From assembly GCA_964520225.1 (NCBI GenBank), contig CAZFNV010000001.1:72210-136209 (forward strand): DNA of 64,000 nt, given 5' to 3'. Within the stretch, counting starts at the first letter, position 1. The number at the start of each line of letters is the position of its first letter. Of the stretch, positions 2,697 through 57,259 are shown in pieces. A program made the position numbers and the translations under genes. Origin of the DNA: an uncultured Candidatus Saccharibacteria bacterium. Lineage in GTDB: Bacteria > Patescibacteriota > Minisyncoccia > Phycocordibacterales > UBA9973. Below the pieces are notes generated by a model. That model saw nothing but the letters and a program-made list of their open reading frames with translations, was not told the origin of the DNA and searched no databases.

Positions 2697-2778
2697 AATG
2701 GCCCTCCTTTCAGGCCATGCTCGCGGTTGAGCCACGAGCGAACACAGAAAAATTGTGAGGTACGATGATTTCGAGATG

Positions 2779-2787: not shown

Positions 2788-2974
2788 CAAAACACCCCTT
2801 TTTTGCAAATTTTGTGCATAACTTTGTGGATAAGTCTGCTGGTTTGCAATTATATGTATGCTGTGATAGTATTCTAGGCGTAAGAGTCCTGCAGCAACGG
2901 GGCTTTTATTTTTTAGAAAATAAGGAGTGCAAACGACCATATTTTCTAAAACCCCGTTAAATGATTTCAAATTT

Positions 2975-3238: not shown

Positions 3239-3325
3239 TATTAAAAAATTTAATAGCGAGCAAGAGGTTAGTAAAATACCCCAATGAAATGCTCAAGCCT
3301 TGCTTGAGCCAAAAATTTCACGGGG

Positions 3326-3365
3326 TGACGATTTTAATAATCGCTTCGCTCATTTAAAATCGTCA
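3326..3365. promoter_or_regulatory. 12-bp perfect inverted repeat (TGACGATTTTAA/TTAAAATCGTCA) whose right arm ends in the A of the nusA ATG
   Basis: Seen directly in the sequence; 16-nt spacer. Confidence 0.4.
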
Positions 3366-4510: not shown

Positions 4511-4572
4511 ACCTTCAATACTCGATTTAAATCCTGGCTTGAAAAAGCCAGGAAAAAGAATATACTTGTGAT

Positions 4573-5160: not shown

Positions 5161-5202
5161 ATTTGAATTTTATTAGCTTATTAGTATTAATAAATAAAAA
5201 TT

Positions 5203-5901: not shown

Positions 5902-5961
5902 TTAAGCCTTTGTTTTTAATTTAGATAAAGGTTACGACATTGAGTAATTAACTAAAAAACT

Positions 5962-6183
5962 ATGGAATCAGATCAAAAATCAAATGGTGCTTTCGTGAGT
6001 TCAATAATTATCATCATCATACTCATCGTCGGAGGTATATATCTTTTCAAGAAAACGCCAGCAAACGCTCCTACTCCTCAAAATGGCACTGAGGCTCTAC
6101 TCGAGTCAGACCTAAACTCTACCGCCGACCTAGAAGCTGAACTAGAAGGCATAGATTTAGAGAACTTGGATTCAGAAATATAA
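5962..6183 (+). CDS. Small membrane protein, hypothetical
   Basis: 73 aa with a single TM (IIIIIILIVGGIYLF); a terminator follows. Confidence 0.4.
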   Translation: MESDQKSNGAFVSSIIIIIILIVGGIYLFKKTPANAPTPQNGTEALLESDLNSTADLEAELEGIDLENLDSEI

Positions 6184-6207
6184 ACAAGATTCAATCTCAA
6201 AAATAAA

Positions 6208-6239
6208 ATCCCCGCCCATAGTAGCGGGGATTTTATTTT
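6208..6239 (+). terminator. Rho-independent terminator (ATCCCCGC / GCGGGGAT stem followed by TTTTATTTT)
   Basis: Seen in sequence. Confidence 0.7.
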
Positions 6240-6272
6240 GACAAAATCAACTTACGAATATAAGATAATGAA
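6238..6272 (+). promoter_or_regulatory. Leaderless promoter for tig: TTGACA-17-TAAGAT, then 6 nt to the ATG
   Basis: Seen in sequence. Confidence 0.45.
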
Positions 6273-7328
6273 ATGTCAAAAACTAAAGTCACAAAGTTAC
6301 CAAAAAGCGAAGTGGAGATAGAGGGCGAGCTTGCCGAAAACATATTTGAAGCGTATTTCCCTTTGGCGCTCAAGAGAATATTTGAGGACTTAGAGATAGA
6401 TGGCTTCCGCAAAGGCAAAGCACCGGAACATGTAGTACTTTCTAGGGTTCCTGAAAAAGTTATCTTGGAAGAAATGGCAGAAATGGCTCTACGGGAACAC
6501 TATCCAAAAATTCTCGAAGATGAAAAGATCGACGCTATAAGTCAGCCGGAAATTGCGATAACCAAGCTCGCCCGCAAGAACCCGCTCGGTTTTAAAATCA
6601 AGACTGCAGTTTTACCTGAAGTGAAATTGCCTGACTACAAAGCTCTAGCTAAAAAAATTCTTTCTTCCTTATCGGATAAGGACAAGGACACTTCCGTTAG
6701 TGATGAGGAAGTCGAAAACACAATACTCGACATCCGAAAATCTCGCGCACCGAAGAAGCATGTAACCGAAGGCGCAGAAGAAAAAGAGCTAGAAGGCAAA
6801 GAAGAACTGCCAGAGTGGAATGATGAGTTCGTAAAAGGGCTTGGACCTTTCGACAGTGTGGAAGATTTCAAAACCAAGCTCAAAGAAAATCTAAAAATAG
6901 AAAAAGCCAATCTCCAGAAAGAAAAAACTCGCATCAAAATAATAGAGGGTGTCATTGAGGACTCTGAGCTTGAAGTACCCGACATTCTGGTCGAGCTTGA
7001 ACTCAATAAAATTCTGGCTCGAATGGAGTCGGACATTACCCAAATGGGACTCAAGTTTGAAGACTATCTAAAACATTTGAACAAAACTGCGGAAGACTTG
7101 CGTAAAGAATTTCGCAAAGATGGCGAGAAGAAAGCCAAACTCGCCCTCATACTAAATGCAATAGCTAAAGCTGAGAAAATTGTTGCCGACCAGGCTAAAG
7201 TTGAACAAGAAGTGGAACAAATACTCGCTCACTACAAAGACGCTGACCCTGACCGCGCTCGTGCCCATGTGGAAGAAGTGCTCACTAACGAGCTCATATT
7301 TGCGTTACTCGAGAAAGACTCTGCTTAA
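6273..7328 (+). CDS. tig: Trigger factor, short form (the PPIase region appears reduced)
   Basis: Trigger-factor N-terminal signature GFRKGKAP; it lies next to clpP as in the tig-clpP arrangement. Confidence 0.8.
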   Translation: MSKTKVTKLPKSEVEIEGELAENIFEAYFPLALKRIFEDLEIDGFRKGKAPEHVVLSRVPEKVILEEMAEMALREHYPKILEDEKIDAISQPEIAITKLARKNPLGFKIKTAVLPEVKLPDYKALAKKILSSLSDKDKDTSVSDEEVENTILDIRKSRAPKKHVTEGAEEKELEGKEELPEWNDEFVKGLGPFDSVEDFKTKLKENLKIEKANLQKEKTRIKIIEGVIEDSELEVPDILVELELNKILARMESDITQMGLKFEDYLKHLNKTAEDLRKEFRKDGEKKAKLALILNAIAKAEKIVADQAKVEQEVEQILAHYKDADPDRARAHVEEVLTNELIFALLEKDSA

Positions 7329-15522: not shown

Positions 15523-15896
15523 TAAATAAATTCACAGTAAATGCTTCCGGCGAAACGCATATCCTGAACTTGACTTCAAGTATTTTTCAAACATTAGCGC
15601 TGTTTCTTTTGACGCAAATGCGCAATACCAAACTAATTTATATTTACCATTTTTCGTAGTTTCTACTTGGCCTTGATTATGGTAAATAAGTCTATCTTTC
15701 AGATTGTTGGACTAACCAACATAATATTCTTGCTTATCTGCATTAAATAAAATATAAGTGTAGTACATATTTTTTGCCCCACTCCATCAAGATTGCGCGA
15801 GGCCACTTCGCTTTCGTGTTTTTTATTATATCAATTTCAATATAGAGTTTTGTGGTGCTTGCACCGCGAAGCTCCTGATTCGTCAGGAGCGCAGTG

Positions 15897-30105: not shown

Positions 30106-30615
30106 ATGACTGTTATCAAGCATGAAGAACAGCGGGTGGGTGTTTTTATTGATACTCAAAACCTCTACCACTCGGCTAGGCATTTATACAAAGCGCGGGT
30201 CAACTTCGGCGCAGTCCTCAAGGAAGTTGTAGCTGGACGCAAACTCGTACGCGCAGTGGCTTATGTCATTACCACCGAAGCAGGGGACGAGAAGAATTTC
30301 TTTGAAGCTCTGCAGAAGCAAGGTATCGAAACCAAAACTAAAGATTTACAAATATTTCAGGGTGGCGCCAAGAAAGCTGACTGGGATGTGGGCCTCGCAG
30401 TAGACGCTATTAAAATGGCGCCTAGGCTTGACTCTGTAATCATAGTGTCTGGGGATGGCGACTTCATTCCGCTAGTAGAATATCTGCAGACCATCGGCAT
30501 ACAGGTAGAAGTGGCATCTTTTGGTCAATCAACTTCTTCGAAACTACGCGAAGTAGTGGACGAGTTCGTAGATCTTTCAGCTAGCCCTAGGAAGTTTTTG
30601 ATAGGGGTAAGGTAA
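30106..30615 (+). CDS. NYN-domain (LabA-like) protein inserted between rpsO and pnp
   Basis: VGVFIDTQNLYHSAR...IVSGDGDFIPLVEYLQ (NYN catalytic Asp pattern). Confidence 0.7.
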   Translation: MTVIKHEEQRVGVFIDTQNLYHSARHLYKARVNFGAVLKEVVAGRKLVRAVAYVITTEAGDEKNFFEALQKQGIETKTKDLQIFQGGAKKADWDVGLAVDAIKMAPRLDSVIIVSGDGDFIPLVEYLQTIGIQVEVASFGQSTSSKLREVVDEFVDLSASPRKFLIGVR

Positions 30616-43595: not shown

Positions 43596-45770
43596 GTGCA
43601 GGGGAAAAATCATCTAGACGAACTAAATCCTAAACAAAGAGAAGCGGCCATCCACAAAGACGGGCCGCTTTTGGTCGTGGCCGGCGCAGGTGCGGGTAAA
43701 ACTAAAACCATAACTCACCGCATAGTGAACTTGATAAATGAGGGTGTCGCGCCAGATAGCATACTCGCAGTAACTTTTACCAATAAAGCAGCAAAGGAAA
43801 TGCGGGAAAGAATATTGAAAGCTTTAGAAGAACGAAGAGCGGAACATCCTCCTCGCTTTCCTCGCCAGCCCAGCGTGCCGGCTCAGGGTTTCGCCCTCAC
43901 TACCGAGCCGAGCTCGGACCATGCTATTGAGGGCTCAAAACCCGCTGCGGAGGGTGTTCCGCCCTTCGTCTCTACCTTTCATTCGCTCGGTGTACATATA
44001 TTGAAAGAGAATGCGCGCAGGCTAGGGCTCAGCCGATATTTCAGCATACTAGATGAGGGTGATGTGGTGAGTATGATCCGCGAAATACAGAAGGAGCTAG
44101 GTATTGATCCAAAACAATATGAACCAAGGAAAATACGCGGAGCAATCTCGCGCGAGAAAGGTAAGTTTGCACATATTGATGAATACGCAGGCGCCAATAT
44201 GAACCCGTTCGGCCGAATAGTCACAGAAGTCTGGCGCAAATATGAAGACAGAAAAGCGGGGGAGAATGCGCTCGACTTCGACGACCTGCTACTTAAAACA
44301 GTAAAGCTCTTGAAGGAGCACGAGGATGTTCGAGAACATTATCAAAGCCGCTGGCAATACATACACGTAGATGAATATCAGGATACGAATGAAGTGCAGT
44401 ACCTCCTGACCAAACTCCTCGCAGAGAAACATCAGAATATTTGTGTGGTAGGGGATGGCGATCAAAACATATACAGCTGGCGCGGAGCAAATTTGAAAAA
44501 TATTTTGAACTTTGAGAAGGATTATAAAAATGCGAAGGTAGTGCTCTTGGAAGAGAATTATAGATCGACGCAAAATATTCTAGAAGCAGCGAATGAAGTG
44601 ATAAAGAAAAATCAATTTCGCGTAGAGAAAAATCTTTTCACTCGCAATGACACGGGGGAGAAGATCGGGTTATATGAAGCGCTCTCTGAAGCAGAAGAAG
44701 CCGACTTCGTAGCGACGAAAATTTTGGAAATTATAGACAGCGGAGCCACTGATGCTTTCGAGGGACTTGGGAGCGCGACGGCGCGAGCACGAGGAATTTT
44801 TCAGCAGAAAAATATCCGTACCCTAGAAAGTATTAGTGGCGACGCAGATTCTTCGGATATAAAAATTCTATCATCTGCTCCGCCTGATTTTTCTGACATT
44901 GCAGTTCTTTACCGCACTAATTTCCAGTCACGAGTGCTTGAAGAAGCGATGCTCCGCTACAATATTCCATATCAAGTGCTCGGAGTAAAATTCTTTGAAC
45001 GTAAAGAGGTGAAGGACACGCTAGCCTACCTCCGCGCAGCATTAAACCCTGAAAGTTTGTCAGACATAAAAAGAATAATAAACTTTCCAAAGCGAGGCAT
45101 AGGTAAGGCAACACTAGATAAAGTGTTTGCAAAAAATCTAGAGAGTTTGCCTGCCAGCACGAGAGTTAAAATAAATTCTTTCTACCAACTACTCACGGAG
45201 ATAAAAGAAAAGATAGAGACAGTAAGTGCAGAAGAGGCGATAAAATTCACAGTGAAAAAGTCAGGAATTGAACGAGAGTTGTTAGAAGGTGGTGAAGATG
45301 ATGCAGAAAGACTAGCCAACATTAAAGAGCTGGCTACGCTCGCGCTTAAATATGAAGAGCTCGAGCCACCACGTGGAATTGAAAAATTATTAGAGGAGGC
45401 ATCGCTTGCTACTGATCAAGATTCGCTAACAGAAAAAAGTGCAAAAAAAGATAAGTTTGGAGTGAAGCTCATGACTGTACACGCATCGAAGGGGCTAGAA
45501 TTTAAATATGTATTCGTGGTTGGGCTTGAAGATGGACTTTTCCCAGCTTCGGCAAGAGGTGGTGAGAAAAGAGATGATGAAGAAGAACGCCGACTTTTCT
45601 ATGTAGCTCTCACTCGCGCACGACATAAAATATTTTTGTCTTTCGCAAATTTTCGCACCATATTCGGCTCTCGCCAGATAAACGCACCATCAGAATTCTT
45701 AAGCGACATACCTGCCGACCTACTCGAACGCGAAAGGGACAAAAGCGGAGTAAAAACGATTTATATATAG
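43596..45770 (+). CDS. uvrD: UvrD/PcrA-type ATP-dependent DNA helicase (GTG start) carrying a ~47-aa GC-rich Pro/Ala-rich insertion after motif Ia
   Basis: VVAGAGAGKTKT (motif I), TFTNKAAKEM (Ia), DEYQDTN (II), and later helicase motifs. Confidence 0.85.
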   Translation: MQGKNHLDELNPKQREAAIHKDGPLLVVAGAGAGKTKTITHRIVNLINEGVAPDSILAVTFTNKAAKEMRERILKALEERRAEHPPRFPRQPSVPAQGFALTTEPSSDHAIEGSKPAAEGVPPFVSTFHSLGVHILKENARRLGLSRYFSILDEGDVVSMIREIQKELGIDPKQYEPRKIRGAISREKGKFAHIDEYAGANMNPFGRIVTEVWRKYEDRKAGENALDFDDLLLKTVKLLKEHEDVREHYQSRWQYIHVDEYQDTNEVQYLLTKLLAEKHQNICVVGDGDQNIYSWRGANLKNILNFEKDYKNAKVVLLEENYRSTQNILEAANEVIKKNQFRVEKNLFTRNDTGEKIGLYEALSEAEEADFVATKILEIIDSGATDAFEGLGSATARARGIFQQKNIRTLESISGDADSSDIKILSSAPPDFSDIAVLYRTNFQSRVLEEAMLRYNIPYQVLGVKFFERKEVKDTLAYLRAALNPESLSDIKRIINFPKRGIGKATLDKVFAKNLESLPASTRVKINSFYQLLTEIKEKIETVSAEEAIKFTVKKSGIERELLEGGEDDAERLANIKELATLALKYEELEPPRGIEKLLEEASLATDQDSLTEKSAKKDKFGVKLMTVHASKGLEFKYVFVVGLEDGLFPASARGGEKRDDEEERRLFYVALTRARHKIFLSFANFRTIFGSRQINAPSEFLSDIPADLLERERDKSGVKTIYI

Positions 45771-45782
45771 ATATTAGGATGC

Positions 45783-46628
45783 TTAACTTTCTTTCTTGAA
45801 TATATACTCAAGGACAGATTTTACCTTGGCACTACCGTCGATTTTATCTAAGTTGGAATAAACTTCGTCGAGCTTATCCTTTAGCATGCTCTTTACTTGC
45901 TCCTCTCCAAACCGGTAGACGCTTGTATTCTTGTCTTTATCTACCCCCGTCGGCTTACCGGTTAAAGTAGAGTTTTTCAAGTCTCTCAAATCATCAAACA
46001 GCTGATAAGCAAGTGCAAGATCATTACCAATCTTTTCGAATACATTTAAAAGGTTCTGTTTTTTTAATAGATGAACGGGTAGAAGCACGGCTAAAAACAG
46101 CATACTATTCTTGAGTTGCATAGAAGATATGAGATCGTTGTCATTTTTCTTAATATCAAGATCCAGCTCCTGGCCCAGGAGGACATTTTTTATCGCCTGA
46201 TTTATTAAAACATCAGCCTGCATAACTTCCTGGACATCACCCAGGTGATCCTGTATAGCCTCGTTCAATAATTTTCTACCTTCTTCTTGTAAGAAGAGCC
46301 CCGCAAAGATAGCGTTTGATTCTCCGTACTCCAAATGAACTGATGGCTTACCTTTTCGGAGAGGCGCATTGTCAATAGAGGGCAAATCATCAAAAATCAG
46401 AGACGACTGATGCAGAAACTCCAGCGCTACAATAGCTTTATCGTACCGACCGTCAGCACCACCCAACAATCTGTAAATCTCCATCGCAATAATGGCTCTA
46501 TATCTCTTGCCTTCAGGTAATATGGAATACCTAGCAGCCAGTAGGTGCTGATAGCGTCGGTTAACATCTAAATAGGCACTGATCTTAGAATCAACATAGC
46601 TCTTTTGGATCCTAAAAAAGTCGTCCAT
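45783..46628 (-). CDS. Polyprenyl diphosphate synthase (trans-IPPS)
   Basis: First DDxxD region LIFDDLPSIDNAPLRKGKPS and second YQLFDDLRD. Confidence 0.75.
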   Translation of the reverse strand: MDDFFRIQKSYVDSKISAYLDVNRRYQHLLAARYSILPEGKRYRAIIAMEIYRLLGGADGRYDKAIVALEFLHQSSLIFDDLPSIDNAPLRKGKPSVHLEYGESNAIFAGLFLQEEGRKLLNEAIQDHLGDVQEVMQADVLINQAIKNVLLGQELDLDIKKNDNDLISSMQLKNSMLFLAVLLPVHLLKKQNLLNVFEKIGNDLALAYQLFDDLRDLKNSTLTGKPTGVDKDKNTSVYRFGEEQVKSMLKDKLDEVYSNLDKIDGSAKVKSVLEYIFKKES

Positions 46629-46714
46629 CAGTTAATCGTAGCACTTAGAGGCTGAGTTTCATAGACAAAACAGTAAACTAGCAACCCCCAATCGCCCTGT
46701 GTTATAGTTTTCTT

Positions 46715-48310
46715 GTGGAAATATTCAGAAAAATACGCCTATATATACAGTCTACGCCAATCACATTGGAATCCTGGTTAGTGTCTTTTGTCGGAATTGT
46801 GCTAGTAAGGATTTCTTTTGAGCAATTTTCGAGCTATCTACCCCGACATTTTGTGCTTTTAGACTTGCCGACAATTATGCACTACGCGTACGCCTTCCTC
46901 GCGATCAGTGCTCTATTTATGGTGATCATGAGAATTTTCACCAATCTAAGCCTCCACGAGATAATCGTAAGCTCGACTTTTGCACTGCTAATAATATGGA
47001 TCCCCCCGGTATTCGACTTAGCGTCGAGCGGAATAGGTGGACACACTATTGGTTATATTTTTGTGTCGGGACCAGAGCTGTTAGCCAGGTTCACAATGTT
47101 CTTCGGCGCCAACACCACCACTGGAGCCACTTTGGGTGTTCAGCTAGAAATAATTTTGGCCCTGATTATATGTTTCACGTACATTTTTCTTATCACTAAA
47201 AATATCTGGCGTAGCTTGGGAGCAACGATTTCTTTCTACTGCGCTATTTTTTTCTTATTTAATTTACCTTCATTCATAGCCCTGGCGTTACCAGCAGGCG
47301 CCACGCCATTTGATACCATAGCCAGAGCGCTCGCCGATTCTAATATAATCCAAAACAATATTCACCCTGAGTGGAGCACAACGCGCCTAGCGCTAGTGCA
47401 TCTTGGATTCAATAAAGCAATGGCTGGCGTACACATTATAATTGTGATGCTTTCGGTGGTTCTACTGGCTTATCTAGACATGCGTACCAAGTTTATTGCT
47501 GTAGCTAAAAATAGCCGAGTACTCCGACTAGCTTGCTACTGTCTGATGTTTGTTTTCGGAAGCCTACTGGCTGGTGAGAATCTTGGAGGCTGGGTAGATA
47601 TTCAGGGTTATATTTTGGCGCTCATATCTATAGTTTGCGCTTGTATATTCAGCATATGCCAGAACGACCTTCACGACGAAGAGATCGACAGGATTTCTAA
47701 TGCTTCTCGCCCACTCGTATCTGGGAAATTATCACGAGAGGATATGTCCTTGGTTTCAAAAATATTTTTATTGTTCAGCCTTATGACCGCCTATGTGGCT
47801 GGTCATTATGTGTTGGTGTTCATTTCCATTTTTATACTTCTCTACTATATTTATTCCAACCCGCCCCTGCGCCTCAAAAGAATTCCGATACTTAGCTCTT
47901 TATTGATAGGCCTAGCATGTATGTCGCTAATAATGGCAGGGTTTTTTTTGATGAGTGAAGACAAAAACATTGTCGCTTTTCCGGTAGAATTAATTTTACC
48001 CACAATACTATTATTTACATTGGCATCCAGCATACGAGATATAAAGGACGTAGAAGGAGATAGTGCTTCTGGCATATACACCCTGCCCGTACTGCTTGGC
48101 GTAGAAAAAACAAAAAAATTACTCGGGGGACTAATGTTCATACCAATACTTATTTCACCTGTGTTTTTTGACTCGGCAACTTTATGGTTACCAGCCATCG
48201 TGACCAGTATACTTTCTTGGTATTTTATAAATGCCAAGAATTATGCGGAGTGGAAAATTTTTGTTTTATATATTATATATTTCACAATAATTATTGTGAG
48301 TGTATTTTAA
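46715..48310 (+). CDS. UbiA-family prenyltransferase fused to an additional N-terminal multi-TM domain (GTG start)
   Basis: NDLHDEEIDRISNASRPLVSG (UbiA NDxxDxxxD) in the C-terminal half; about 14 TM segments in total. Confidence 0.6.
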   Translation: MEIFRKIRLYIQSTPITLESWLVSFVGIVLVRISFEQFSSYLPRHFVLLDLPTIMHYAYAFLAISALFMVIMRIFTNLSLHEIIVSSTFALLIIWIPPVFDLASSGIGGHTIGYIFVSGPELLARFTMFFGANTTTGATLGVQLEIILALIICFTYIFLITKNIWRSLGATISFYCAIFFLFNLPSFIALALPAGATPFDTIARALADSNIIQNNIHPEWSTTRLALVHLGFNKAMAGVHIIIVMLSVVLLAYLDMRTKFIAVAKNSRVLRLACYCLMFVFGSLLAGENLGGWVDIQGYILALISIVCACIFSICQNDLHDEEIDRISNASRPLVSGKLSREDMSLVSKIFLLFSLMTAYVAGHYVLVFISIFILLYYIYSNPPLRLKRIPILSSLLIGLACMSLIMAGFFLMSEDKNIVAFPVELILPTILLFTLASSIRDIKDVEGDSASGIYTLPVLLGVEKTKKLLGGLMFIPILISPVFFDSATLWLPAIVTSILSWYFINAKNYAEWKIFVLYIIYFTIIIVSVF

Positions 48311-48312
48311 AT

Positions 48313-49086
48313 ATGAAAAATCATCGGGCGAAAAAATCTCTAGGGCAAAATTTCTTGAAATCCACTAGCGCCTTGCGGGCGATAGTAGAAGCAGGAGAGA
48401 TAAAGAGTGGAGAAACTGTGCTTGAAATTGGCCCCGGCAAAGGAGCGCTTACAGAACAGCTTCTAGCTAGTAGCACTCAGGTGATAGCTGTCGAGAAAGA
48501 CAGACAACTTGTAGAACTATTAAAAAATAAATTCGCAAAAGAAATCGAAGCCGGGAAATTAGTGCTAATTAATGATGATATTTTAGAATTTCTTCCTAGC
48601 GCCTACAGCCTAAAGCCTAGTGCCTACAAAGTTATCGCCAACATTCCGTACAACATCACCGGCGCCATAATAAAAAAATTCCTAACTGGAAACGAACAAC
48701 CTGAGAGGATGGTACTCATGGTGCAAAACGAAGTTGCGAAAAGGATCGTAGCTTCTGATAAAAAGGAGAGCCTTCTTTCTGTTTCAGTGAAAGCATACGG
48801 AAACCCTGAAATAATTCTGAAGGTGCCAGCGCGGTACTTCTCTCCAGCGCCTCAAGTAGATTCGGCGGTAATAGTGATCAAAAACATTTCCCGTGAATTT
48901 TTCACAGAAAATAAAATTTCTGAAGCACGATTCTGGGAGGTGGCACATGCCGGATTTGCCCATAAACGCAAAAAGCTTTCTGGCAACCTAAAGGGGATAG
49001 TAAGTGAAGACTCACAAAGATCTATAGGTGATAAGCGGGCAGAAGACCTGTCTCTTTCAGACTGGGTTAAAATATGTCGAGCATAA
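48313..49086 (+). CDS. rsmA: 16S rRNA (adenine1518/1519-N6)-dimethyltransferase
   Basis: LGQNFL, VLEIGPGKGALTE (SAM binding) and NIPYNIT motifs. The start is taken at the ATG at 48313. Confidence 0.85.
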   Translation: MKNHRAKKSLGQNFLKSTSALRAIVEAGEIKSGETVLEIGPGKGALTEQLLASSTQVIAVEKDRQLVELLKNKFAKEIEAGKLVLINDDILEFLPSAYSLKPSAYKVIANIPYNITGAIIKKFLTGNEQPERMVLMVQNEVAKRIVASDKKESLLSVSVKAYGNPEIILKVPARYFSPAPQVDSAVIVIKNISREFFTENKISEARFWEVAHAGFAHKRKKLSGNLKGIVSEDSQRSIGDKRAEDLSLSDWVKICRA

Positions 49087-49087
49087 T

Positions 49088-50047
49088 TTGCTACTGTGCA
49101 CTAAAACAGTGTATAATTTCTGTATTAATAAATTATTTTGGGCGAAAAACAAGATAGCTATCTTGGTTGCCTTAGCGGTAATCTTTTTGGCTGGTTTGTT
49201 TTGGAGCAAAAATCAAACTGAGTTTAGTAACCCTGATAATATGAGGGGTCTAGTGTATAGCAACACCCCCCTTGAGGATCTTGTGACTAAAGACACAGAC
49301 GGAGACGGGGTGCTCGATTGGGAAGAAGCACTCTGGGGCACAGACCCAACCAAAACGGATACTGATGGTGACGGGATAACAGACAAAGAAGAAATAGAGG
49401 GGCTCAAGGCAGAGGCGGGCGTGGATCCAGATTCTATAATATTCTCAGCTAACGCAGAAAACCTAACTGAAACTGACAAATTTGCACGCGAACTTTTTAC
49501 CACAGCAGCGGCCCTTAGCCAGGGAGGCGCATTAGATGAAGAGACTATCGACGCAATTGGTAATTCTTTAGCAGAAAACTTTTATACATCGAAACAAAGG
49601 AAAATTTTTACTATAACCGACATAAAGACGATTGATAATGAGAGTAAAGAGACAACCCTAGAATACGGAAAACAGTTGGGCACAATACAAGAAAAATACC
49701 CCCTCGGCAAGGCTGAAGATGTGGCCTTTACATTATTAAACTCCATAACCCCTGAGGGCGAAACTGATGTTGCGGCACTAAACAAACTCGACCCAACAAT
49801 AAACCAGTTGAATAATATAGTGAGAGAACTCGCAATTACAGATACGCCTAGATATATAGCGCCCATGCATCTATTGATTATAAATGAATTTCAGCATCTT
49901 TCTGAAAACATCTCCGATATGAAGAAAATAGAAGATGACCCGGTGGTGGCGTTGGGAGCGATAAATACATATGAAGAGAATTTAAGCGAGATATCTATAT
50001 ACTTAAGACAGCTTTTTATGTTGATAAATATGAAATTGAATAGTTGA
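49088..50047 (+). CDS. Membrane-anchored protein with thrombospondin-type-3-like Ca-binding DxDGDG repeats; first gene of the T4SS-like locus (start uncertain: TTG 49088 or GTG 49109)
   Basis: TM segment IAILVALAVIFLAGLFW followed by DTDGDGVLDWEE and DTDGDGITDKEE. Confidence 0.45.
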   Translation: MLLCTKTVYNFCINKLFWAKNKIAILVALAVIFLAGLFWSKNQTEFSNPDNMRGLVYSNTPLEDLVTKDTDGDGVLDWEEALWGTDPTKTDTDGDGITDKEEIEGLKAEAGVDPDSIIFSANAENLTETDKFARELFTTAAALSQGGALDEETIDAIGNSLAENFYTSKQRKIFTITDIKTIDNESKETTLEYGKQLGTIQEKYPLGKAEDVAFTLLNSITPEGETDVAALNKLDPTINQLNNIVRELAITDTPRYIAPMHLLIINEFQHLSENISDMKKIEDDPVVALGAINTYEENLSEISIYLRQLFMLINMKLNS

Positions 50048-50076
50048 CAATAGCGTTCTATAATTAGAGTAACATT

Positions 50077-51837
50077 ATGCTAAAGAAGCTGATAAAAAAA
50101 TGGAGGGTTGAAAAGTTTATAGCTGGGCTAATGATATGCGCTATCCTCACGCCTGTGTTCGCAACCTTTATGGCACCGCGACAGGTGGAAGCCCAGTATG
50201 TTGACCCCTTTAATGCTGGCGCCTGGATTAAAGATTTGATAAACCAGACATTTAAACAAATAAAAATGCACGTGGGGAGAATACTACTCAACAGGCTCAA
50301 CCAAAGCGTTACGAAATGGATAGCTTCAGGATTCCACGGCAACCCCTTCTACCTAGAGAATTCGAAGTCGTTTTTCAAAGATATAGTTAAATATGAGGTG
50401 AAGAATATAGTAGATACTTATGCATACAATAGGGACAAGTTCCCGTTCGGGCGTAGTTTTGCTTTAAACACAATCTCTGCTTATCAACGCAACCTAGAAG
50501 ACAACACAGCCTACACTCTCAGCCGAGTTATTAATGACCCGGTTTTCCTGGAAAACTATAGAAATGATTTCAATGTGGGTGGATGGGATGGATTCTTCAT
50601 CAACACCCAGTATCCGCAGAACAACTATATAGGCTTTCAGATGCTCGCAACAGAAGAGTTGGCGCGCAAGCTAGACGGAACCGCTCAAACTGCAGCCCAG
50701 AAAGTAAACACTATACTTGAGCAAAGTGGAGGATTTTTAGCTCCGCAGGTATGTGCAGACCCTGGCACAAAATACAACAATGGTAAAAACGAATTCTTGC
50801 AACCAAGATTTGATATGGCAAAATTTGAAAGAGACAATCCTTATAACTGTGATTCCTCTGATTCTCTGGGTTTCGCAATTTGTAATGACCAATGGAACGC
50901 AAAGCTTGAAAAAGAAAAAGCCGACTGGGCGAAAGATAACACTTGTAAAAACTTAGTGACCACGACCCCTGGGAGTGTGGTAGCTAACCAGATAGAAACA
51001 ACCCTGCAATCCAAGATAAGACAAACAGAGCTAGCTGCTGCTATGGGTAACGCTCTGGCAACAGGATTCGGACTTTTGTTAGACAGCCTTCTTCAGAAAG
51101 GCCTGACCAAGTTAGGAGGTGTGCTAGATTCCACGGCAGGCACAGATACGGTTAACCTTAGACCTAATGCTGTAGGGGGAAGTGGGGTAAATGTAGAAAC
51201 GTGCCAGAGCGTGGGCTCAAGCATCGCAACAGGTAACGCATCCGGCTACACCCAAGAAGGCGAGTACCTGAACCTAGACATCGAACTAAACAACTCCGGA
51301 GCAAGCGAATCTTGCACTAGCGTAAGCGTGCCAGGAGGAACACCGCCAGATTTGTCGGAATTTAATCGATACCCCATTCCTGGCGGTGGCAGTGTAGATA
51401 ACCCTCCTCCGGCTGGTGGCTGTGGTGGAGGCGACAACGAACATTGCACCTGTAAAGCCAATAACGATCTAGATGGTTTGGGGCTGGGTATATTCTCGAA
51501 ATACAGAGCGGCTGTGGTGGCAGCGAGAGATGCAGTACATGCTAACCCAAGCCCAGCAGTCGGACTTGATGCCAACGGCAACTTCCTAGGCTATTCATAT
51601 GGTGACACTTATGCTAAAGCCATAGTCTGCGAGCTTCGCAAAGCAGGCTACCTAGCCGACGGAGTGAACGATGAGATAGGTGTGGCGCGAACAGGTGACA
51701 CCTTCCAAGAAAACTTCGATGTATATTCTAGCATCGGGCTCGTCAATGTCCGCTTCATGGCGTTCTGCACCAGCTTAAATGGCGATGGAGCCTACCCAGA
51801 ATTCAGCACTAGCGGCCGAGGATTCACTTGCCAGTAA
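50077..51837 (+). CDS. Secreted hypothetical protein (586 aa) with Cys pairs and Gly/Pro-rich segments
   Basis: Signal peptide IAGLMICAILTPVFATFMAPRQVEAQ. Confidence 0.5.
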   Translation: MLKKLIKKWRVEKFIAGLMICAILTPVFATFMAPRQVEAQYVDPFNAGAWIKDLINQTFKQIKMHVGRILLNRLNQSVTKWIASGFHGNPFYLENSKSFFKDIVKYEVKNIVDTYAYNRDKFPFGRSFALNTISAYQRNLEDNTAYTLSRVINDPVFLENYRNDFNVGGWDGFFINTQYPQNNYIGFQMLATEELARKLDGTAQTAAQKVNTILEQSGGFLAPQVCADPGTKYNNGKNEFLQPRFDMAKFERDNPYNCDSSDSLGFAICNDQWNAKLEKEKADWAKDNTCKNLVTTTPGSVVANQIETTLQSKIRQTELAAAMGNALATGFGLLLDSLLQKGLTKLGGVLDSTAGTDTVNLRPNAVGGSGVNVETCQSVGSSIATGNASGYTQEGEYLNLDIELNNSGASESCTSVSVPGGTPPDLSEFNRYPIPGGGSVDNPPPAGGCGGGDNEHCTCKANNDLDGLGLGIFSKYRAAVVAARDAVHANPSPAVGLDANGNFLGYSYGDTYAKAIVCELRKAGYLADGVNDEIGVARTGDTFQENFDVYSSIGLVNVRFMAFCTSLNGDGAYPEFSTSGRGFTCQ

Positions 51838-51910
51838 GATATTGCTGACAAAGCAATGGGTTATAAAGTGTAAAGTTGAAAATTGTAAGGTTTGTGATAT
51901 AATACAGCAC

Positions 51911-52129
51911 ATGAAATCGCGAAATTTTACAGCCCTATTTAAGAAAGTTGGCAAGTTCTATGCCGCTTGGGTAGAGGAAGTGCCTGGAGTAAACACCCAA
52001 GGCAAAACTCTGAATGAAGCTCGCGAGAATCTAAAAGAAGCTTTGATGTTAGTCCTAGAAACTCAGCGGCACATAGTCCAAAAAGAAGCAGGCGCTGGCT
52101 ATATAAAAAGAGAAGTGCTCTTTGCATAA
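51911..52129 (+). CDS. hicB: HicB-family antitoxin (UPF0150)
   Basis: FTALFKKVGKFYAAWVEEVPGVNTQGKTLNEARENLKEAL. The start is taken at the internal ATG at 51911. Confidence 0.65.
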   Translation: MKSRNFTALFKKVGKFYAAWVEEVPGVNTQGKTLNEARENLKEALMLVLETQRHIVQKEAGAGYIKREVLFA

Positions 52130-52138
52130 AAACCCCTT

Positions 52139-52333
52139 ATGAAACGCACCGACTTAATAACACACCTGAGAAAAAACGGTGTGATCTTTTTGAGAGAGGG
52201 AAATTCTCATAGTGTTTACTATAATCCAGAAAATGGCCGGGCTTCTACCATACCGAGACACTCCGAGATAAACACTTTCACTGGCCGAAAAATCTGTCGA
52301 GACCTTGGTGTACCTTTGATCCAAATGAGGTAA
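52139..52333 (+). CDS. hicA: HicA-family mRNA interferase toxin
   Basis: KRTDLITHLRKNGVIFLREGNSHSVYYNPENGRASTIPRHSEIN...LGV pattern; 9 nt after hicB. Confidence 0.65.
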   Translation: MKRTDLITHLRKNGVIFLREGNSHSVYYNPENGRASTIPRHSEINTFTGRKICRDLGVPLIQMR

Positions 52334-52434
52334 CTTCTATTCAGAAGACACCGAAAAGCAAAAGGCTGTACACTTAAAATAAAAATAGTGTTAAAATAAA
52401 GAGGTGGGTCCCGTAGTAGATTTTTATTACGATT

Positions 52435-52704
52435 ATGTTCTATGTATACATAATTGAAAGTGTAGTCGGGAAAAACTTATATATCGGCTTCACTAAAGAT
52501 CTCAAGAAAAGACTACTGGAACATAATCAAGGGTTAAATTTTTCTACTAAAAGATATGGTAAATGGAACATTATATACTACGAAGCCTGCGCAGAAGAAA
52601 GCGATGCTAGGCGCAGAGAAAAATACCTAAAAACAACACAAGGAGGGAGGTTGAGAAAAAGAAGAATAAAGGATTATTTATATAAATTGAAAAATTTAAC
52701 ATAA
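52435..52704 (+). CDS. Small stand-alone GIY-YIG nuclease domain protein (second copy)
   Basis: FYVYIIESVVGKNLYIGFTKDLKKRLLEHN...EKYLK. Confidence 0.65.
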   Translation: MFYVYIIESVVGKNLYIGFTKDLKKRLLEHNQGLNFSTKRYGKWNIIYYEACAEESDARRREKYLKTTQGGRLRKRRIKDYLYKLKNLT

Positions 52705-52721
52705 TAAAAATTCACTACAGG

Positions 52722-52811
52722 ATGAAAAGGGTCTGGTTAACAATTCCAATATTCGCACTCGTGCTCTTTTTTGCTTTCTTTGGTGGAGTAAGCGATGCGG
52801 GGGCGGAGGAG
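52722..52811 (+). pseudogene. Duplicated 5-prime end (signal-peptide coding, 30 codons and then a stop) of the TrbL/VirB6-like gene. It is about 90% identical to 53446-53530 and forms an ~89-bp direct repeat flanking the NYN gene.
   Basis: MKRVWLTIPIFALVLFFAFFGGVSDAGAEE* compared with MKRYLLTIPIFALVLFFAFFGGVSDAGAQ... in the downstream gene. Confidence 0.6.
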
Positions 52812-52822
52812 TAAAATAAAAA

Positions 52823-53362
52823 ATGGATAAAGAGCAAGCAAAAAACATAGCTTTCATAGATGGCCAAAATTTATATATGGCAACAAAAGAAAGCGTGGAG
52901 CCTTGGTCTGTCGATTTTACTCGTTTTCGTATTTACTTATTACAAAAGTATGGCGTTGAACGTGCGTATTACCATCTGGGATATTTAGATGAAGAAAATC
53001 AAGATTTATACGAACAAATTCAAAATGCAGGATTTATTTTAGTATTTAAAAAACATAATCCTGCTATGATGGGTAAGAAGAAGGGAAACGTCGATTCTGA
53101 CATAATTTTTTCTGCCATGAGACGCGTCTATAAAAAAGAGAATTTCGATAAAGTTATATTTGTTTCAGGAGATGGTGATTATAAGGCTTTGGTAGATTTC
53201 TTGATTGAAGAGAACAGGTTTGCAAAAATACTCTTCCCAAGCAGGAGAAACTATTCGTCTCTATATAAAGCACTATCAAATAATTTTTTCGCTTTCCTAG
53301 ATAATCCAGACACAAAAGATAAAATAGAGCATAAAAAAGAAAAGGGTGCCTTAGGTAATTAA
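52823..53362 (+). CDS. NYN-domain (LabA-like) protein (second copy), lying between the two copies of the TrbL 5-prime repeat
   Basis: IAFIDGQNLY...VIFVSGDGDYKALVDFL. Its SD (GAGGAG) is supplied by the end of the upstream repeat copy. Confidence 0.7.
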   Translation: MDKEQAKNIAFIDGQNLYMATKESVEPWSVDFTRFRIYLLQKYGVERAYYHLGYLDEENQDLYEQIQNAGFILVFKKHNPAMMGKKKGNVDSDIIFSAMRRVYKKENFDKVIFVSGDGDYKALVDFLIEENRFAKILFPSRRNYSSLYKALSNNFFAFLDNPDTKDKIEHKKEKGALGN

Positions 53363-53445
53363 CCTTTCGGACCCCTTTTCGTCGTAATATATACATGTTA
53401 GCAGATAGATAAAAAAAGTCAACAGTGTTAAAATATAATCACCGG

Positions 53446-55914
53446 ATGAAAAGATACTTGTTAACAATTCCAATATTCGCGCTCGTGCTCTTTTTTGCTT
53501 TCTTTGGCGGAGTAAGCGATGCGGGGGCGCAGACGACAACATCCGCACCGAATGAAGTTGTGGGAACTTGCACGGTAACTTACTATGTAATCGTGGCTGG
53601 TGGTGGAATCTCAAAAATTGGCACACAAACACTACCTAATATGACAGTAAGTGAGTGCGACCTCTTTAAAGAACCGAGCAATGGCAGCATCCCGTCTGTG
53701 GTTGGTGCTAAATATACCACAGCGGTAAATGACCGCATACGCACTAAGCCTGGGGACGTAACACCTACTGGCATAGTGCCAACCAGCAACTCCGAAGATC
53801 CTAACGCCTTTCAAAACAGCATCAACGAGGGATGCCCTAGTATAATAAGAGGCACTCTAACTGGCTGTCTTTTAAAATTTATTTACTATTTTTACTTCCA
53901 ACTACCAACATTCATTTTGTATGTTGCGGCGTATGTTTTTAATATATTAATGTCGCTGGTGATACAAGACTCAATGTATCAGCATGATTTTATTAACAAC
54001 GCATGGAGCGTGGTACGAGATCTTTCAAATGTATTCTTTATATTGATACTACTTTATATCGGAATAAAAACTGTGCTTGGTATGGGCGGACATGAAACAA
54101 AAAAGGTTATTACATCAGTTGTGCTCATGGCGCTACTAATAAACTTTTCGATGTTCTTCACGCGTATTGTGATCGACTCGTCCAACATGCTGGCATTAAT
54201 ATTTTATCGTGAGTTAGACACTAAATATGAAACAGAAACTGGAGAAAAGGTGGAAAGGCCGTTCACATCTGTTACGCCAGGTAAAGAAAAGGACGCAGCG
54301 GGTGCATTATATTCAAAATTTGATGCCACGCGCTTAATGAGACAAGAGGTTGTAAGTCAGATTGGTGCAACTACCGTTAATAGCATACCTGTGCTGGGAA
54401 ATCTAGAAAGCTTTGGAATAAAGTTCGGGATCATTGTTGTTTCAGGAACCATCATGATAGTCGCGGCGTATGTGTTTTTTGTTTCGGGGATTTTCTTCCT
54501 AGGAAGGATTATTGACCTGTGGATACTGATGATCACTGCACCGTTTGCATTTATGTCTTACGCATTACCGAGCCTTGCGCACACAGAATACGGCTGGAGT
54601 AAGTGGACCGAGAAGCTAATTTCAGTAGCATTTATGGCCCCGGCGTTTATGTTTTTCTTGTATTTAATATTTTTAATACTTGGAACGAAAAATTTCTTTA
54701 GTGGCTTCATAGACCCTAGCAACACATCGTGGATTGGAATACTTATGGGGATATTCCTTCCCGCGGCAATAATTCTTGGCTTACTACTAAAAGCAAAAGA
54801 CTTAGCCAAAAAGGCTGGAGGACAATTTGGAGAGACCGTTATGTCGGGAGCTAAATTGGCGGGAGGTCTTGCGCTTGGCGCTACTGGCGCCGGAGTGGCA
54901 GCTTTGGGAACTAGATATGTTGGAGGCGCTGCAATGAAAACTCTCGCCGACAAAGGGTTACGAGAAAGGGCGCTGAGTGGAGACACTGCTGCTCAAAAAG
55001 AGATAGAGCGAGCGGGAAGAAATGTGAATAGAAGTTTCGACTTCCGCGACACCAAGCTAGGTAAATTTGTGGCCGATAAATCTGGTGTCAAATTTACTGA
55101 AGGAAGAATATCTTCCATGCTGGGTCTTGATACTCATGCATTTGAAGGCGGAATAGCCGGACAAATCAAGCATGCCAAAGAGCATGAGGAGAAAAATATA
55201 AAAGCATATATGCTGAGCGCGGGCGAAGCTAATGAGCAAGACACAAAGGCTGAGATTGCAAATAAGGAAATAGAAGAGAGGCAGAAACAATACAACAAGG
55301 AACTCAAGAAGGCAAGAGAGACAGACCCACTATTGGATGAAGATAAATTCAAAGAAGAATTTGTTAAAAACAACGGTAGCCTAGAGAAAGTGGCGACAGC
55401 GAAAGATATTAATGACGATATAAAGAGAAGATACTTTGCTCAGAAAGAAAGCCACCACGACGCAGAGGGATTAAAGGCGGCAATGAAAGATTTAGTAAAG
55501 GCATTAAAAACAACAGGTAAGGCGTCTGGGGCAGGTATGGCAGGATCAGCGGCAATGGGGGCTTATACCGGAGGCGCCGCTGGGGCTCTTGGTGCAGTAA
55601 CAGTAACTGGGGCTGTGCTTGGAACCGGTATACCGATAGCAGGTGGAATGTTCTTGAAAAAATTGAAAAATGTCTTGAAGAACGAAGGCGCTATACATGC
55701 CTACGGATTAGCAGAAGCAAAGAGACCGAAAAGCAATAAAGAGAAATTAGCGGAAGCAGTTAAAGAACTAGGACTTGATAATAAGAAAGAGAGTCATGGA
55801 GGCGGTGGTGGGCACGCACCGTCACATTCCGCACCGCCACACAAAGAAGAATCTCATGGTCCAACTGGAGGCGACCACGGCAGTGGAGGAGATCATGGTA
55901 ATGGCCATAACTAA
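53446..55914 (+). CDS. TrbL/VirB6-like polytopic membrane protein of the T4SS-like system, with a secreted N-terminal domain and a Gly/Ala/His-rich C-terminal tail
   Basis: Signal peptide followed by ~6-7 TM helices in the TrbL-like arrangement (FILYVAAYVFNIL..., LILLYIGIKTVLG, VVLMALLINFSMFF, IVVSGTIMIVAAYVFFVSGIFFLG, WILMITAPFAFMSYAL, FMAPAFMFFLYLIFLILG). The start is taken at the ATG at 53446; leaderless after TATAAT. Confidence 0.6.
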   Translation: MKRYLLTIPIFALVLFFAFFGGVSDAGAQTTTSAPNEVVGTCTVTYYVIVAGGGISKIGTQTLPNMTVSECDLFKEPSNGSIPSVVGAKYTTAVNDRIRTKPGDVTPTGIVPTSNSEDPNAFQNSINEGCPSIIRGTLTGCLLKFIYYFYFQLPTFILYVAAYVFNILMSLVIQDSMYQHDFINNAWSVVRDLSNVFFILILLYIGIKTVLGMGGHETKKVITSVVLMALLINFSMFFTRIVIDSSNMLALIFYRELDTKYETETGEKVERPFTSVTPGKEKDAAGALYSKFDATRLMRQEVVSQIGATTVNSIPVLGNLESFGIKFGIIVVSGTIMIVAAYVFFVSGIFFLGRIIDLWILMITAPFAFMSYALPSLAHTEYGWSKWTEKLISVAFMAPAFMFFLYLIFLILGTKNFFSGFIDPSNTSWIGILMGIFLPAAIILGLLLKAKDLAKKAGGQFGETVMSGAKLAGGLALGATGAGVAALGTRYVGGAAMKTLADKGLRERALSGDTAAQKEIERAGRNVNRSFDFRDTKLGKFVADKSGVKFTEGRISSMLGLDTHAFEGGIAGQIKHAKEHEEKNIKAYMLSAGEANEQDTKAEIANKEIEERQKQYNKELKKARETDPLLDEDKFKEEFVKNNGSLEKVATAKDINDDIKRRYFAQKESHHDAEGLKAAMKDLVKALKTTGKASGAGMAGSAAMGAYTGGAAGALGAVTVTGAVLGTGIPIAGGMFLKKLKNVLKNEGAIHAYGLAEAKRPKSNKEKLAEAVKELGLDNKKESHGGGGGHAPSHSAPPHKEESHGPTGGDHGSGGDHGNGHN

Positions 55915-56899: not shown

Positions 56900-57259
56900 A
56901 TGAAGACTTACCAAGACTTGATAGTTTGGAAGAAATCTATAGAGCTAGTAATCGCTATATATAGCCTTACGGATAAATTCCCAAGAGAAGAAATATTTGG
57001 CATAACTTCACAAATCCGCCGAGCAGCAGTATCAATACCTTCAAATATCGCTGAAGGTAAAATGCGTGGCGGAAATATAGAATTAAAAAGGTTTCTGCTG
57101 ATCGCTTTTGCTTCGGGCGCGGAACTCGAAACTCAGCTTATAATAGCTAGAAAATTACCTAAAATGGTAAATTTAGATTATAATAAAGTGGATCCTCTTT
57201 TAAATGAGGTTATGAGGATGTTAAATAAAATGATTACTCAGCTAGAGCCTAAAGCCTAG
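56900..57259 (+). CDS. Four-helix-bundle protein of the 23S rRNA intervening-sequence protein family
   Basis: YQDLIVWKKSIELVIAIYSLTDKFPREEIFGITSQIRRAAVSIPSNIAEG...ASGAELETQLIIARKL closely matches the family consensus as I remember it. Confidence 0.8.
   Translation: MKTYQDLIVWKKSIELVIAIYSLTDKFPREEIFGITSQIRRAAVSIPSNIAEGKMRGGNIELKRFLLIAFASGAELETQLIIARKLPKMVNLDYNKVDPLLNEVMRMLNKMITQLEPKA

Follow-up and report, generated by a model that had tools for sequence, protein, structure and literature searches.

The 64-kb stretch of DNA analysed here (the window; positions 72,210 to 136,209 of contig CAZFNV010000001.1, from an uncultured Candidatus Saccharibacteria bacterium) carries a chromosomal type IV secretion system (T4SS) operon in which a small gene for an NYN/LabA-like PIN-fold nuclease (52823-53362, plus strand; 179 aa) lies directly upstream of the gene for a VirB6/TrbL-like polytopic membrane protein (53446-55914, plus strand; 822 aa). 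The membrane-protein gene is intact, and its 5' end is present twice, once in place and once on the far side of the NYN gene. The two copies bound a module of about 620 bp (52809-53428, plus strand) that consists of a short leader, the NYN open reading frame (ORF), a hairpin and an antisense promoter. Coordinates are positions within the window unless they stand with the name of another contig.

The repeat was detected with a repeat finder and by MAFFT and Smith-Waterman alignment, with shuffled sequences as the null. Copy A (52705-52808) and copy B (53429-53532), both on the plus strand, are 104 nt long, 88% identical and spaced 724 nt apart; a model reading this DNA from its letters alone (the original prediction) had described the same duplicated 5' end as 89 bp at about 90% identity. 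Alignment of the copies together with their flanks upheld the repeat, the two alignment methods agreeing, and extended it weakly, with one gap, to 52682-52808 against 53405-53532 (104-127 nt). Its content is the ribosome-binding-site (RBS) region, from about 17 nt 5' of the ATG, followed by codons 1-28; in copy B these serve the VirB6/TrbL-like gene as its working RBS region and signal-peptide codons, and copy A is their relic duplicate. Within codons 1-28, 6 of the 84 nt differ between the copies; of the changed codons, three are synonymous and the other two, which are adjacent, turn VW into YL. The copies diverge after the GCG of Ala28, where the upstream one continues as GAG GAG TAA and the VirB6-like gene as CAG ACG. 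This end of the repeat is a predicted signal-peptidase site, SDAGA/QTT (cut at the slash; -3/-1 rule, judged by eye). Identity along the repeat is uneven, with 10 mismatches in the 32 positions from -17 to +15 and 3 in the 72 positions from +16 to +87.

As the window stems from a metagenome-assembled genome (MAG), an assembly artefact or a chance similarity has to be considered, and is hardly conceivable. The Smith-Waterman score of the repeat is 148 against a maximum of 31 across 100 shuffles, and the 64 kb contain its 47-nt core pattern exactly two times, where 0.00 occurrences are expected by chance. The copies differ at 12% of positions, which argues against the collapse or duplication of one identical repeat. 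The identical arrangement is found in a separate Logan assembly: contig L001 (SRR15237813), which may derive from the same sample as the MAG, is 100% identical across window positions 44790-53809 and has both copies. The same architecture is present, moreover, in about 10 contigs of a second lineage, L015, described below. Because of these statistics and of the Logan contig with both copies, the repeat is confirmed as neither chance similarity nor a collapsed repeat. It is the single long direct-repeat family at the locus, with no third copy within the window.

Copy A is closed by a stop, as the original prediction held, and leaves a 30-aa signal-peptide mini-ORF (MKRVWLTIPIFALVLFFAFFGGVSDAGAEE; 52722-52814, plus strand) that is seen in the ORF list, in the codon comparison and as a gene call in L001. 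The mini-ORF ends in TAA, 8 nt 5' of the NYN ATG at 52823. A GGAGGAG at 52805-52811 lies 11-13 nt 5' of this ATG, rather distant for an ideal Shine-Dalgarno (SD) sequence; GAGGAG is a plausible SD of the NYN gene, and translational coupling via the mini-ORF stop codon seems at least as likely. The mini-ORF is likely to serve as the translation entry for NYN. Copy A also has a promoter-like site (52677-52705). A start close behind an upstream stop is also found where NYN homologues follow pilB in other lineages, at a distance there of 9-16 nt.

The NYN protein matches PF01936 (the NYN.COG1432 group of PIN-like nucleases) over residues 11-132 (59.4 bits, cut-off 24.2; E 7e-16), and D13, D31, D91, D93, D117 and D119 are invariant in nine NYN homologues, including a paralogue of only 36% identity; the catalytic residues are intact, and nuclease activity is predicted. 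More than 4000 homologues (about 4200) were found, the best of them 60-74% identical; those with a named source fall in Candidate Phyla Radiation (CPR) phyla, and many lie on short contigs. Searches of phage and plasmid collections with the NYN protein gave no match, and PADLOC returned only a weak one (18.6 bits) and hence does not list the gene among known defence genes. In flank alignments across lineages the conserved unit stretches from about 10-25 nt 5' of the ATG to a GTCAA roughly 60 nt past the stop; sequence 5' of the ATG is nearly unconserved, and the roughly 60 nt 3' of the stop are strongly conserved. The unit is without a promoter of its own. Since the repeat exactly flanks this cross-lineage conserved unit, the duplication belongs to the NYN module. 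The module has a GC content of 0.33, against 0.43 in the window flanks, and the NYN GC content is 4-12 points below that of the flanks in every host examined. A distant NYN paralogue is also present in the window (30106-30615, plus strand; 27% identity over 125 aa), without 3' hairpin, antisense promoter or flanking repeat.

The conserved 3' segment is predicted to be a gene for a cis-antisense RNA of about 55 nt, convergent with NYN. A conserved hairpin spans the NYN stop codon (53339-53380) and probably terminates transcripts from either direction, the minus strand having the better U-tract; its folding energy is -19.2 kcal/mol on the minus strand (z -3.5), where it is followed by UUUUCUUUUUU, and -17.4 kcal/mol on the plus strand (z -2.7). 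The consensus fold likewise gives -17.4 (minus) against -10.6 (plus) kcal/mol, and G-U-compatible substitutions occur on the minus strand only. Facing the gene from beyond its 3' end is an antisense promoter (53395-53422, minus strand), identified by consensus scan and conservation, with a -35 TTGACT (53422-53417), a 16-nt spacer and a -10 TAACAT (53400-53395). The minus-strand arrangement TTGAC(A/T/C)-16 nt-TAnnAT is kept in all nine NYN lineages examined while the spacer sequence is free, being wholly different in L040 and L043; the 36%-identical paralogue (L036a) has the same promoter geometry with another hairpin sequence. From the geometry of promoter and terminator, a small RNA overlapping the NYN 3' end would extend over 53333-53388 on the minus strand. 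A covariance model of the element (R1) matches every NYN 3' end at 94-112 bits and nothing in T4SS loci that lack NYN; its matches are confined to NYN-adjacent sites, apart from one orphan hairpin copy in L038. The motif occurs once in the window, no Rfam family was found for it in a permissive scan of 51800-53700, and IMG/VR viral contigs gave 0 matches. A plus-strand outward promoter, TAGATA-17-TAAAAT, was rejected as a candidate: it is present in the window, its geometry is unconserved in L015 (read by eye), and the minus-strand promoter is conserved everywhere.

Two side observations concern this 3' element. Lineage L036 (Falkowbacteria) has tandem NYN paralogues (3998-4531 and 5001-5534) that are 38% identical, with a 93-aa ORF between them, and both show the TTGAC-16-TAnnAT antisense geometry with differing hairpin sequences. 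Some 130 nt 3' of the NYN module of L038, beside a convergent RNase HII gene, is the orphan hairpin (5663-5709, minus strand; 34 bits, model positions 45-92), which may be the remnant of a second module.

The gene whose 5' end is duplicated belongs to a cluster with recognizable T4SS components. Downstream of it lie PrgI/VirB3 (PF12666, 38.9 bits), a TrsD/TraC-like gene of 212 aa and a CD1110-family ATPase resembling VirB4 (365.9 bits, cut-off 325). The 822-aa protein has a weak match to the NCBIfam conjugal-transfer model MMCAP2_0566 (E 0.0016; 17.8 bits against a cut-off of 90). Neither the Pfam TrbL/VirB6 families, searched with the protein and its homologues (about 22 sequences), nor a profile search of the PDB with the family gave anything meaningful. 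The best PDB fold match is R388 TrwI/VirB6 (8rt9_F; probability 0.99, E 0.16, TMt 0.54) and the match list holds four more chains of the R388 T4SS complex, with a model whose mean confidence (pLDDT) is only 58.5. Given a polytopic membrane protein clustered with VirB3 and VirB4, in a synteny kept across nine loci, the label TrbL/VirB6-like is reasonable, though not proven because there is no Pfam match. The closest public loci belong to Candidatus Nomurabacteria/Paceibacterota. The gene set fits a published description of the Patescibacteria T4SS, in which VirB6, PrgI and the T4SS cluster are reported essential for epibiotic growth of Ca. Southlakia epibionticum (PMC12102498).

A related locus is seen in two strains, L024 and L026, that are about 100% identical over 8.5 kb and have identical NYN proteins and VirB6-like proteins that are only 57% identical. 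The divergence takes the form of mosaic blocks within the VirB6-like gene (about 4800-7300), the first of which begins right after the signal peptide, with 32-53% identity. The diverged domains appear hypervariable and swapped by recombination.

The uninterrupted arrangement of the operon was found in a comparison set of nine T4SS loci without NYN (L002-L008, L011-L013), and to this extent the insertion relative to relatives that the original prediction had supposed holds. In all nine a homologue of a 586-aa secreted-protein gene lies 5' of the VirB6/TrbL-like gene, and no match to HicBA, GIY-YIG or NYN, the small genes found at this point in the window, occurs anywhere in the locus. The gap between the 586-aa homologue and the VirB6-like gene is 10-66 nt in the five loci read in detail (L002, L005, L011-L013), and so leaves no room for a second signal-peptide segment. 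A second gap, between the homologue of a 312-aa gene and PrgI, is 16 nt in L002 and 40 nt in L012; in the window it holds a gene of the 23S-rRNA-IVP family. Because the loci without NYN run from the 586-aa gene nearly straight into the VirB6-like gene, HicBA, GIY-YIG, NYN and IVP are taken as lineage-specific additions, and the 1.6 kb between 51837 and 53446 is, as judged from these comparisons, lineage-specific. An ancient tandem paralogue unrelated to NYN, the scenario set beforehand against an insertion, is contrary to what the related genomes show. The nearest loci without NYN (L011, L012 and L013) have VirB6-like identities of 54, 48 and 47% and identities of 51, 52 and 46% in the 586-aa neighbour. 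In scans of genome and metagenome contigs, every locus recovered with the VirB6-like protein had 34-50% identity, a search of 5.8 billion proteins returned the protein itself and then nothing above 54%, and an exact-protein look-up returned no contig.

Nine contexts were sampled among the more than 4000 NYN homologues. In three of these (the window and the L015 and L024 lineages) NYN stands directly 5' of a VirB6-like gene, the homologues in L015 and L024 being 67-72% identical; in two (L034, L040) it stands directly after pilB/T2SSE; and the remaining four, two copies in L036 and one each in L038 and L043 (a restriction-modification/Fic island), lie elsewhere. The L015 gene is flanked by a 106-nt repeat of 74% identity, which lengthens to about 120 nt when gaps are allowed and scores 75 (shuffle maximum 31). 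It duplicates the signal-peptide region of its own genome, a region quite different there, as an ORF of 36 codons, and again ends at the predicted cleavage site, RADA/QTE (slash as above). The proposed tie between the duplication and the NYN gene is borne out by this recurrence around a NYN homologue at the VirB6 site. In L034, at the pilB site, a 35-nt repeat of the pilB 3' end is seen, the downstream copy of which starts right after the GTCAA end of the module. In three lineages, therefore (the window, L015 and L034), unusually long duplications flank the NYN module. A NYN tree does not group the proteins by site: L024, from a T4SS, pairs with L034, from a pilB site (82% identity; bootstrap 173/200). 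This topology and the NYN GC content below that of the flanks argue, within a small sample, that NYN moves between sites and is not purely vertically inherited.

Over 1631 nt, strain L020 differs from L015 at only three positions, all in copy A and two of them non-synonymous. The differences, in L020 269-374 (L015 positions 3913, 3920 and 3926), fall within 14 nt, and copy B agrees with only one of them; they may reflect relaxed constraint, conversion over a short tract from a third allele, or a mixture of strains in the assembly.

The intact mini-ORFs of the window and L015 raise the alternative that the upstream copy is a selected regulatory leader, an upstream ORF coupling NYN to T4SS gene expression or to membrane-insertion capacity. 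The stop only 8 nt from the NYN ATG in the window, the synonymous nature of three of the five changed codons within codons 1-28 and the similar placement of NYN 9-16 nt past an upstream stop at pilB sites would all suit such a role. However, L024 has NYN at the VirB6 site without such an ORF, the L015 mini-ORF stops 32 nt from the NYN ATG, and the three differences of L020 from L015, by falling in copy A, suggest relaxed constraint; a regulatory leader is accordingly very improbable. A secretion-monitoring arrest peptide was ruled out for the mini-ORF by peptide length: a peptide of 30-36 aa is too short to exit the ribosome tunnel before termination, and a sensor of the SecM/MifM type is unlikely.

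The recurrence at the VirB6 site could also reflect a single ancient NYN insertion and duplication in a common ancestor of these Paceibacteria, inherited vertically, with gene conversion between the copies and with repeat-mediated loss, exactly restoring an uninterrupted junction, in the relatives that lack NYN. In favour of this scheme, the duplications of the window and L015 share their right end, which falls in both at the signal-peptidase site of the protein. An old split is also suggested by the L015 copies, copy A being 72% identical to copy B and 72% to the orthologous L002 region, with all three about equally distant from one another, and NYN has diverged (67-72%) about as much as conserved T4SS proteins, the 212-aa TrsD-like one being an example (70-79%). 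In the window repeat, a conversion tract could explain why the 3' part is 97% identical. Yet the NYN proteins at T4SS sites are not monophyletic, given the pairing of L024 with a pilB-site protein, and the two relatives nearest by both markers (L011, L012), as well as L013, are without NYN. The duplications have unlike left ends, at -17 to -41 for the window and at -3 for L015, and the signal peptides of the two lineages cannot be aligned with each other although each matches its own partner copy. Moreover, keeping repeats of 100 bp 700 bp apart over the long term needs selection against deletion. A single ancient event is considered unlikely.

A further possibility is that NYN is a homing-type, site-specific nuclease that cuts the VirB6 signal-peptide/mature junction and the pilB 3' end and is copied in by break repair. 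This would account for occupation of the VirB6 site in three lineages and of the pilB 3' end in two, for a breakpoint on a motif conserved between lineages (GATGCG...CA(G/A)ACG, encoding (D)A/QT), and for the intact catalytic residues in every copy, and the downstream repeat copy would serve as a replacement 5' exon. Against it, members of the NYN/LabA family are predicted RNases, none of them assayed for nuclease function (PMC5499597), and no NYN/LabA protein is known to cleave DNA site-specifically. The NYN protein is a bare catalytic domain of 179 aa in which no DNA-recognition domain is obvious, no target motif is common to the VirB6 and pilB junctions, and each of two NYN alleles was seen in one context only, among the 10 places listed of 22 contigs each. 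Homing by NYN itself is therefore regarded as improbable.

The explanation favoured here, with a probability of roughly 0.6, is that a selfish, possibly type-I-toxin-antitoxin-like NYN module of about 620 bp inserted at the 5' end of the VirB6/TrbL-like gene with a long target duplication generated by host recombination. In this scheme the module (the NYN gene, the stop-codon hairpin and the convergent promoter) would have entered the chromosomal T4SS operon so as to duplicate the RBS region and signal-peptide codons of the target up to the predicted signal-peptidase site. The downstream copy would keep the secretion gene complete, and the upstream copy, as a relic, would give NYN incoming transcription and a translated 30-codon leader; the antisense RNA would probably restrain NYN expression in the manner of a type I toxin-antitoxin (TA) system. 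Such a repeat would most likely arise from host recombination or repair. Two routes may be envisaged: the first joins one homologous anchor with an illegitimate joint during DNA uptake, and the second involves loop-out of the module with one repeat copy and its re-integration into a naive signal-peptide block. The whole start region would be duplicated because only insertions that leave a complete essential gene persist, a matter of survivorship. The signal-peptide/mature junction is, on the evidence of the L024/L026 mosaic, a natural recombination breakpoint, and because divergence there begins immediately behind the signal peptide, the duplication's right end would coincide with the end of a conserved homology block. 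The uneven identity of the window repeat fits a crossover or a conversion tract.

Several observations weigh against this explanation or limit its reach. The contexts are a small sample, nine among more than 4000 homologues, and flanking repeats were not detectable at L024, L036, L038, L040 or L043; a relic duplication sought in L024 came to a 28-nt match scoring 21 against a shuffle maximum of 30. With five other lineages showing no flanking repeat, the duplication is not an obligatory signature of the module. The 35-nt repeat of L034 is marginal (score 40 against a shuffle maximum of 33). The equal 72% distances in L015 imply that its duplication is old or came from another allele, which leaves an independent origin of the two duplications unproven. 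The unevenness of the window repeat is significant by Fisher's test (p 3e-4) at a cut point picked post hoc. No compensatory covariation was found in the hairpin, and the antisense RNA and any toxicity of NYN are predictions. Finally, the VirB6-like proteins are hypervariable, which makes calls of a closest relative from them weak; the 586-aa neighbour yields the same ranking of relatives.

The left border of the module, GAGGAGTAAAATAAAAA (52809-52822), resembles the pilB tails found 5' of other NYN copies, which read GAAGAATAAAAAAT in L034 (4975-5000), TCGGAATAAAAC in L040 (2079-2093) and GGCGGAATAAAAAT at the T4SS site of L024 (3956-3970). The shared pattern consists of the last pilB codons, the stop and an A-rich tail (GA(A/G)TAAAA), even at the T4SS site. 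These sequences, short and AT-rich, give a weak hint that the module once left a pilB-adjacent position carrying a few pilB bases.

Known systems resemble parts of this arrangement. In some type I TA systems the antisense RNA is convergent and overlaps the 3' end, and a bidirectional terminator is shared; examples are par/fst-RNAII of pAD1 and txpA/RatA and bsrG/SR4 of Bacillus subtilis. As in these, the NYN module has a convergent promoter just past the 3' end of the protein gene, a predicted antisense RNA over the stop region and one hairpin that can terminate in both directions, and it is a compact unit found among other TA modules. Unlike them, its protein is a 179-aa PIN-fold nuclease of soluble type instead of a small hydrophobic membrane peptide, its gene has no promoter of its own, and toxicity and RNA are here predicted from the sequence. 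The NYN module at most works like a type I system.

Integrative elements may insert into a gene end while carrying a replacement end, as at tRNA 3' ends that form attL and attR, and here too direct repeats of the target's terminal segment flank an insert whose target stays intact. The NYN insert differs in being only about 620 bp, in lacking an integrase or recombinase, and in that the duplicated end is the 5' one, with the signal peptide and promoter-proximal sequence. Insertion sequences and transposons are likewise flanked by a direct duplication of the target, with classical target-site duplications of about 2-14 bp and fixed length, whereas the repeats here are 35, 104-127 or 106-120 nt or absent. 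No transposase or integrase lies between the repeats, where NYN is the sole ORF with a domain match, and no terminal inverted repeats are present at the module ends (52809/53428). Transposition is unlikely for these reasons and because the repeat length is variable. What stands of the mobile-cassette insertion with target duplication advanced by the original prediction is thus the insertion and the duplicated target 5' end; its unit is NYN alone, and a target-site duplication in the transposon sense is doubtful.

Free-standing homing endonucleases, such as those of T4 seg/mob that practise "intronless homing", share with NYN a small nuclease gene of patchy distribution, recurrence at conserved operon junctions, a GC content lower than that of the host and a target gene kept functional. 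By contrast, NYN is not a known homing fold, it has no DNA-binding domain and its flanking duplications are long and variable. Promotion of segmental amplification by phage SegB is outlined in one account (PMC13096335). Homology-facilitated illegitimate recombination and transformation-generated merodiploids are described for naturally competent bacteria (PMC3784515, PMC3240628); as in the scheme favoured here, one homologous anchor traps foreign DNA, junctions form where homology ends, no enzyme of the element is needed and duplication of recipient sequence is possible. The process is not known from CPR bacteria, however, and alone would not explain recurrence at the same two junctions.

A search of the literature found no description of an NYN and antisense-RNA module with such duplications. 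Added here are an NYN and predicted antisense-RNA unit occurring across CPR lineages, its presence at two recurrent operon junctions, and long flanking duplications in three lineages. More tentatively, the unit may be a CPR-wide, selfish type-I-like TA pair with a PIN-fold nuclease toxin that spreads through host recombination among the junctions of DNA-uptake and secretion operons, leaving duplications of the target end of 35-125 bp that would preserve essential genes. If the module is indeed mobile without a recombinase of its own, it would represent gene mobility in a minimal form, reliant on host repair alone. The locus illustrates how a gene may settle in an operon reported essential without breaking it, the relic copy feeding the newcomer and the intact copy serving the host, and the conserved antisense promoter and terminator offer a testable handle on an uncharacterised NYN/LabA subfamily. 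As a likely recombination hotspot near hypervariable, presumably surface-exposed domains, the VirB6-like signal-peptide/mature junction also bears on variation in the contact machinery of epibionts.

Upstream of copy A lie the other small genes that the original prediction had joined with NYN into one HicBA, GIY-YIG and NYN cassette. A strong sigma-70-like promoter is predicted at 51876-51903 (plus strand; TTGAAA-16-TATAAT with an extended TG, 11/12 consensus matches), 5' of a candidate HicB-like/UPF0150 antitoxin gene (51911-52129, plus strand; 72 aa; GC 0.425), which lies outside the repeat and matches PF21748 at 27.4 bits (cut-off 27.3); the HicB_lk_antitox profile gives 19.2 bits, under its cut-off of 27. 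The gene for the HicA toxin (52139-52333, plus strand; 64 aa; PF07927, 38.3 bits, E 1.5e-9, cut-off 27) follows on the same strand 9 nt away, with the antitoxin-like gene leading. Next comes a stand-alone GIY-YIG catalytic-domain protein (52435-52704, plus strand; 89 aa; PF01541, 68.3 bits; GC 0.315), without a flanking direct repeat. It reaches 23 bits with the intron-endonuclease model TIGR01453 (cut-off 56), over profile positions 4-76 of 215, and is not a full-length homing-endonuclease match with a C-terminal DNA-binding domain.

The single cassette did not survive comparison. The repeat brackets the NYN module of about 620 bp alone, GC differs between the parts (HicBA 0.42, GIY-YIG 0.315, NYN 0.328, window 0.43), and neighbours vary elsewhere, so that no unit of HicBA, GIY-YIG and NYN is recognized; at the VirB6 site L014 has HEPN/nucleotidyltransferase and BrnT/BrnA pairs beside NYN and L024 has none of these neighbours. 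Similar duplications were also looked for around HicBA, each GIY-YIG copy, IVP, the distant NYN paralogue and the block from HicBA to NYN, and none rose above shuffles in the window. HicBA, GIY-YIG and IVP are independent small selfish genes piled up at operon junctions. In the tiny genomes of CPR/Patescibacteria, the operon junctions examined still carry several small nuclease, TA and IVP genes.

Decayed extra copies of the VirB6 5' region were sought in the intergenic gaps, and only a 15-nt match 5' of GIY-YIG came to light. This match, AA(T/C)AGTGTTAAAATA, with the extended -10-like TGTTAAAAT, stands 5' of the GIY-YIG and VirB6-like genes (52384-52398 and 53421-53435) and is borderline, scoring 25 against a shuffle maximum of 24; it is probably a shared promoter consensus and could be a trace of an older duplication. 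Two further stand-alone GIY-YIG paralogues lie in the window, at 2927-3238 (plus strand; also bounded as 2984-3229) and 15538-15768 (minus strand), respectively 40% and 37% identical to that at 52435. An in-frame stop interrupts the second, which lacks any ORF of at least 50 aa and may be a pseudogene.

In L014-L018, a Hainich groundwater lineage, the HEPN/nucleotidyltransferase and BrnT/BrnA pairs occupy about 2370-3850, 5' of the mini-ORF and NYN, a place taken in the window by HicBA and GIY-YIG. The space between the gene for the big secreted protein and that for the VirB6-like protein serves TA modules as a landing pad. The IVP-family gene of the window (PF05635, 118 bits) is at 56900-57259, between the 312-aa T4SS gene and PrgI; an IVP gene precedes PrgI in L003 and L013 as well (65% identical in L013), and the same junction holds a GIY-YIG gene in the L024 lineage and nothing in L002 and L012. 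The junction before PrgI is a second operon junction that repeatedly gathers small selfish genes.

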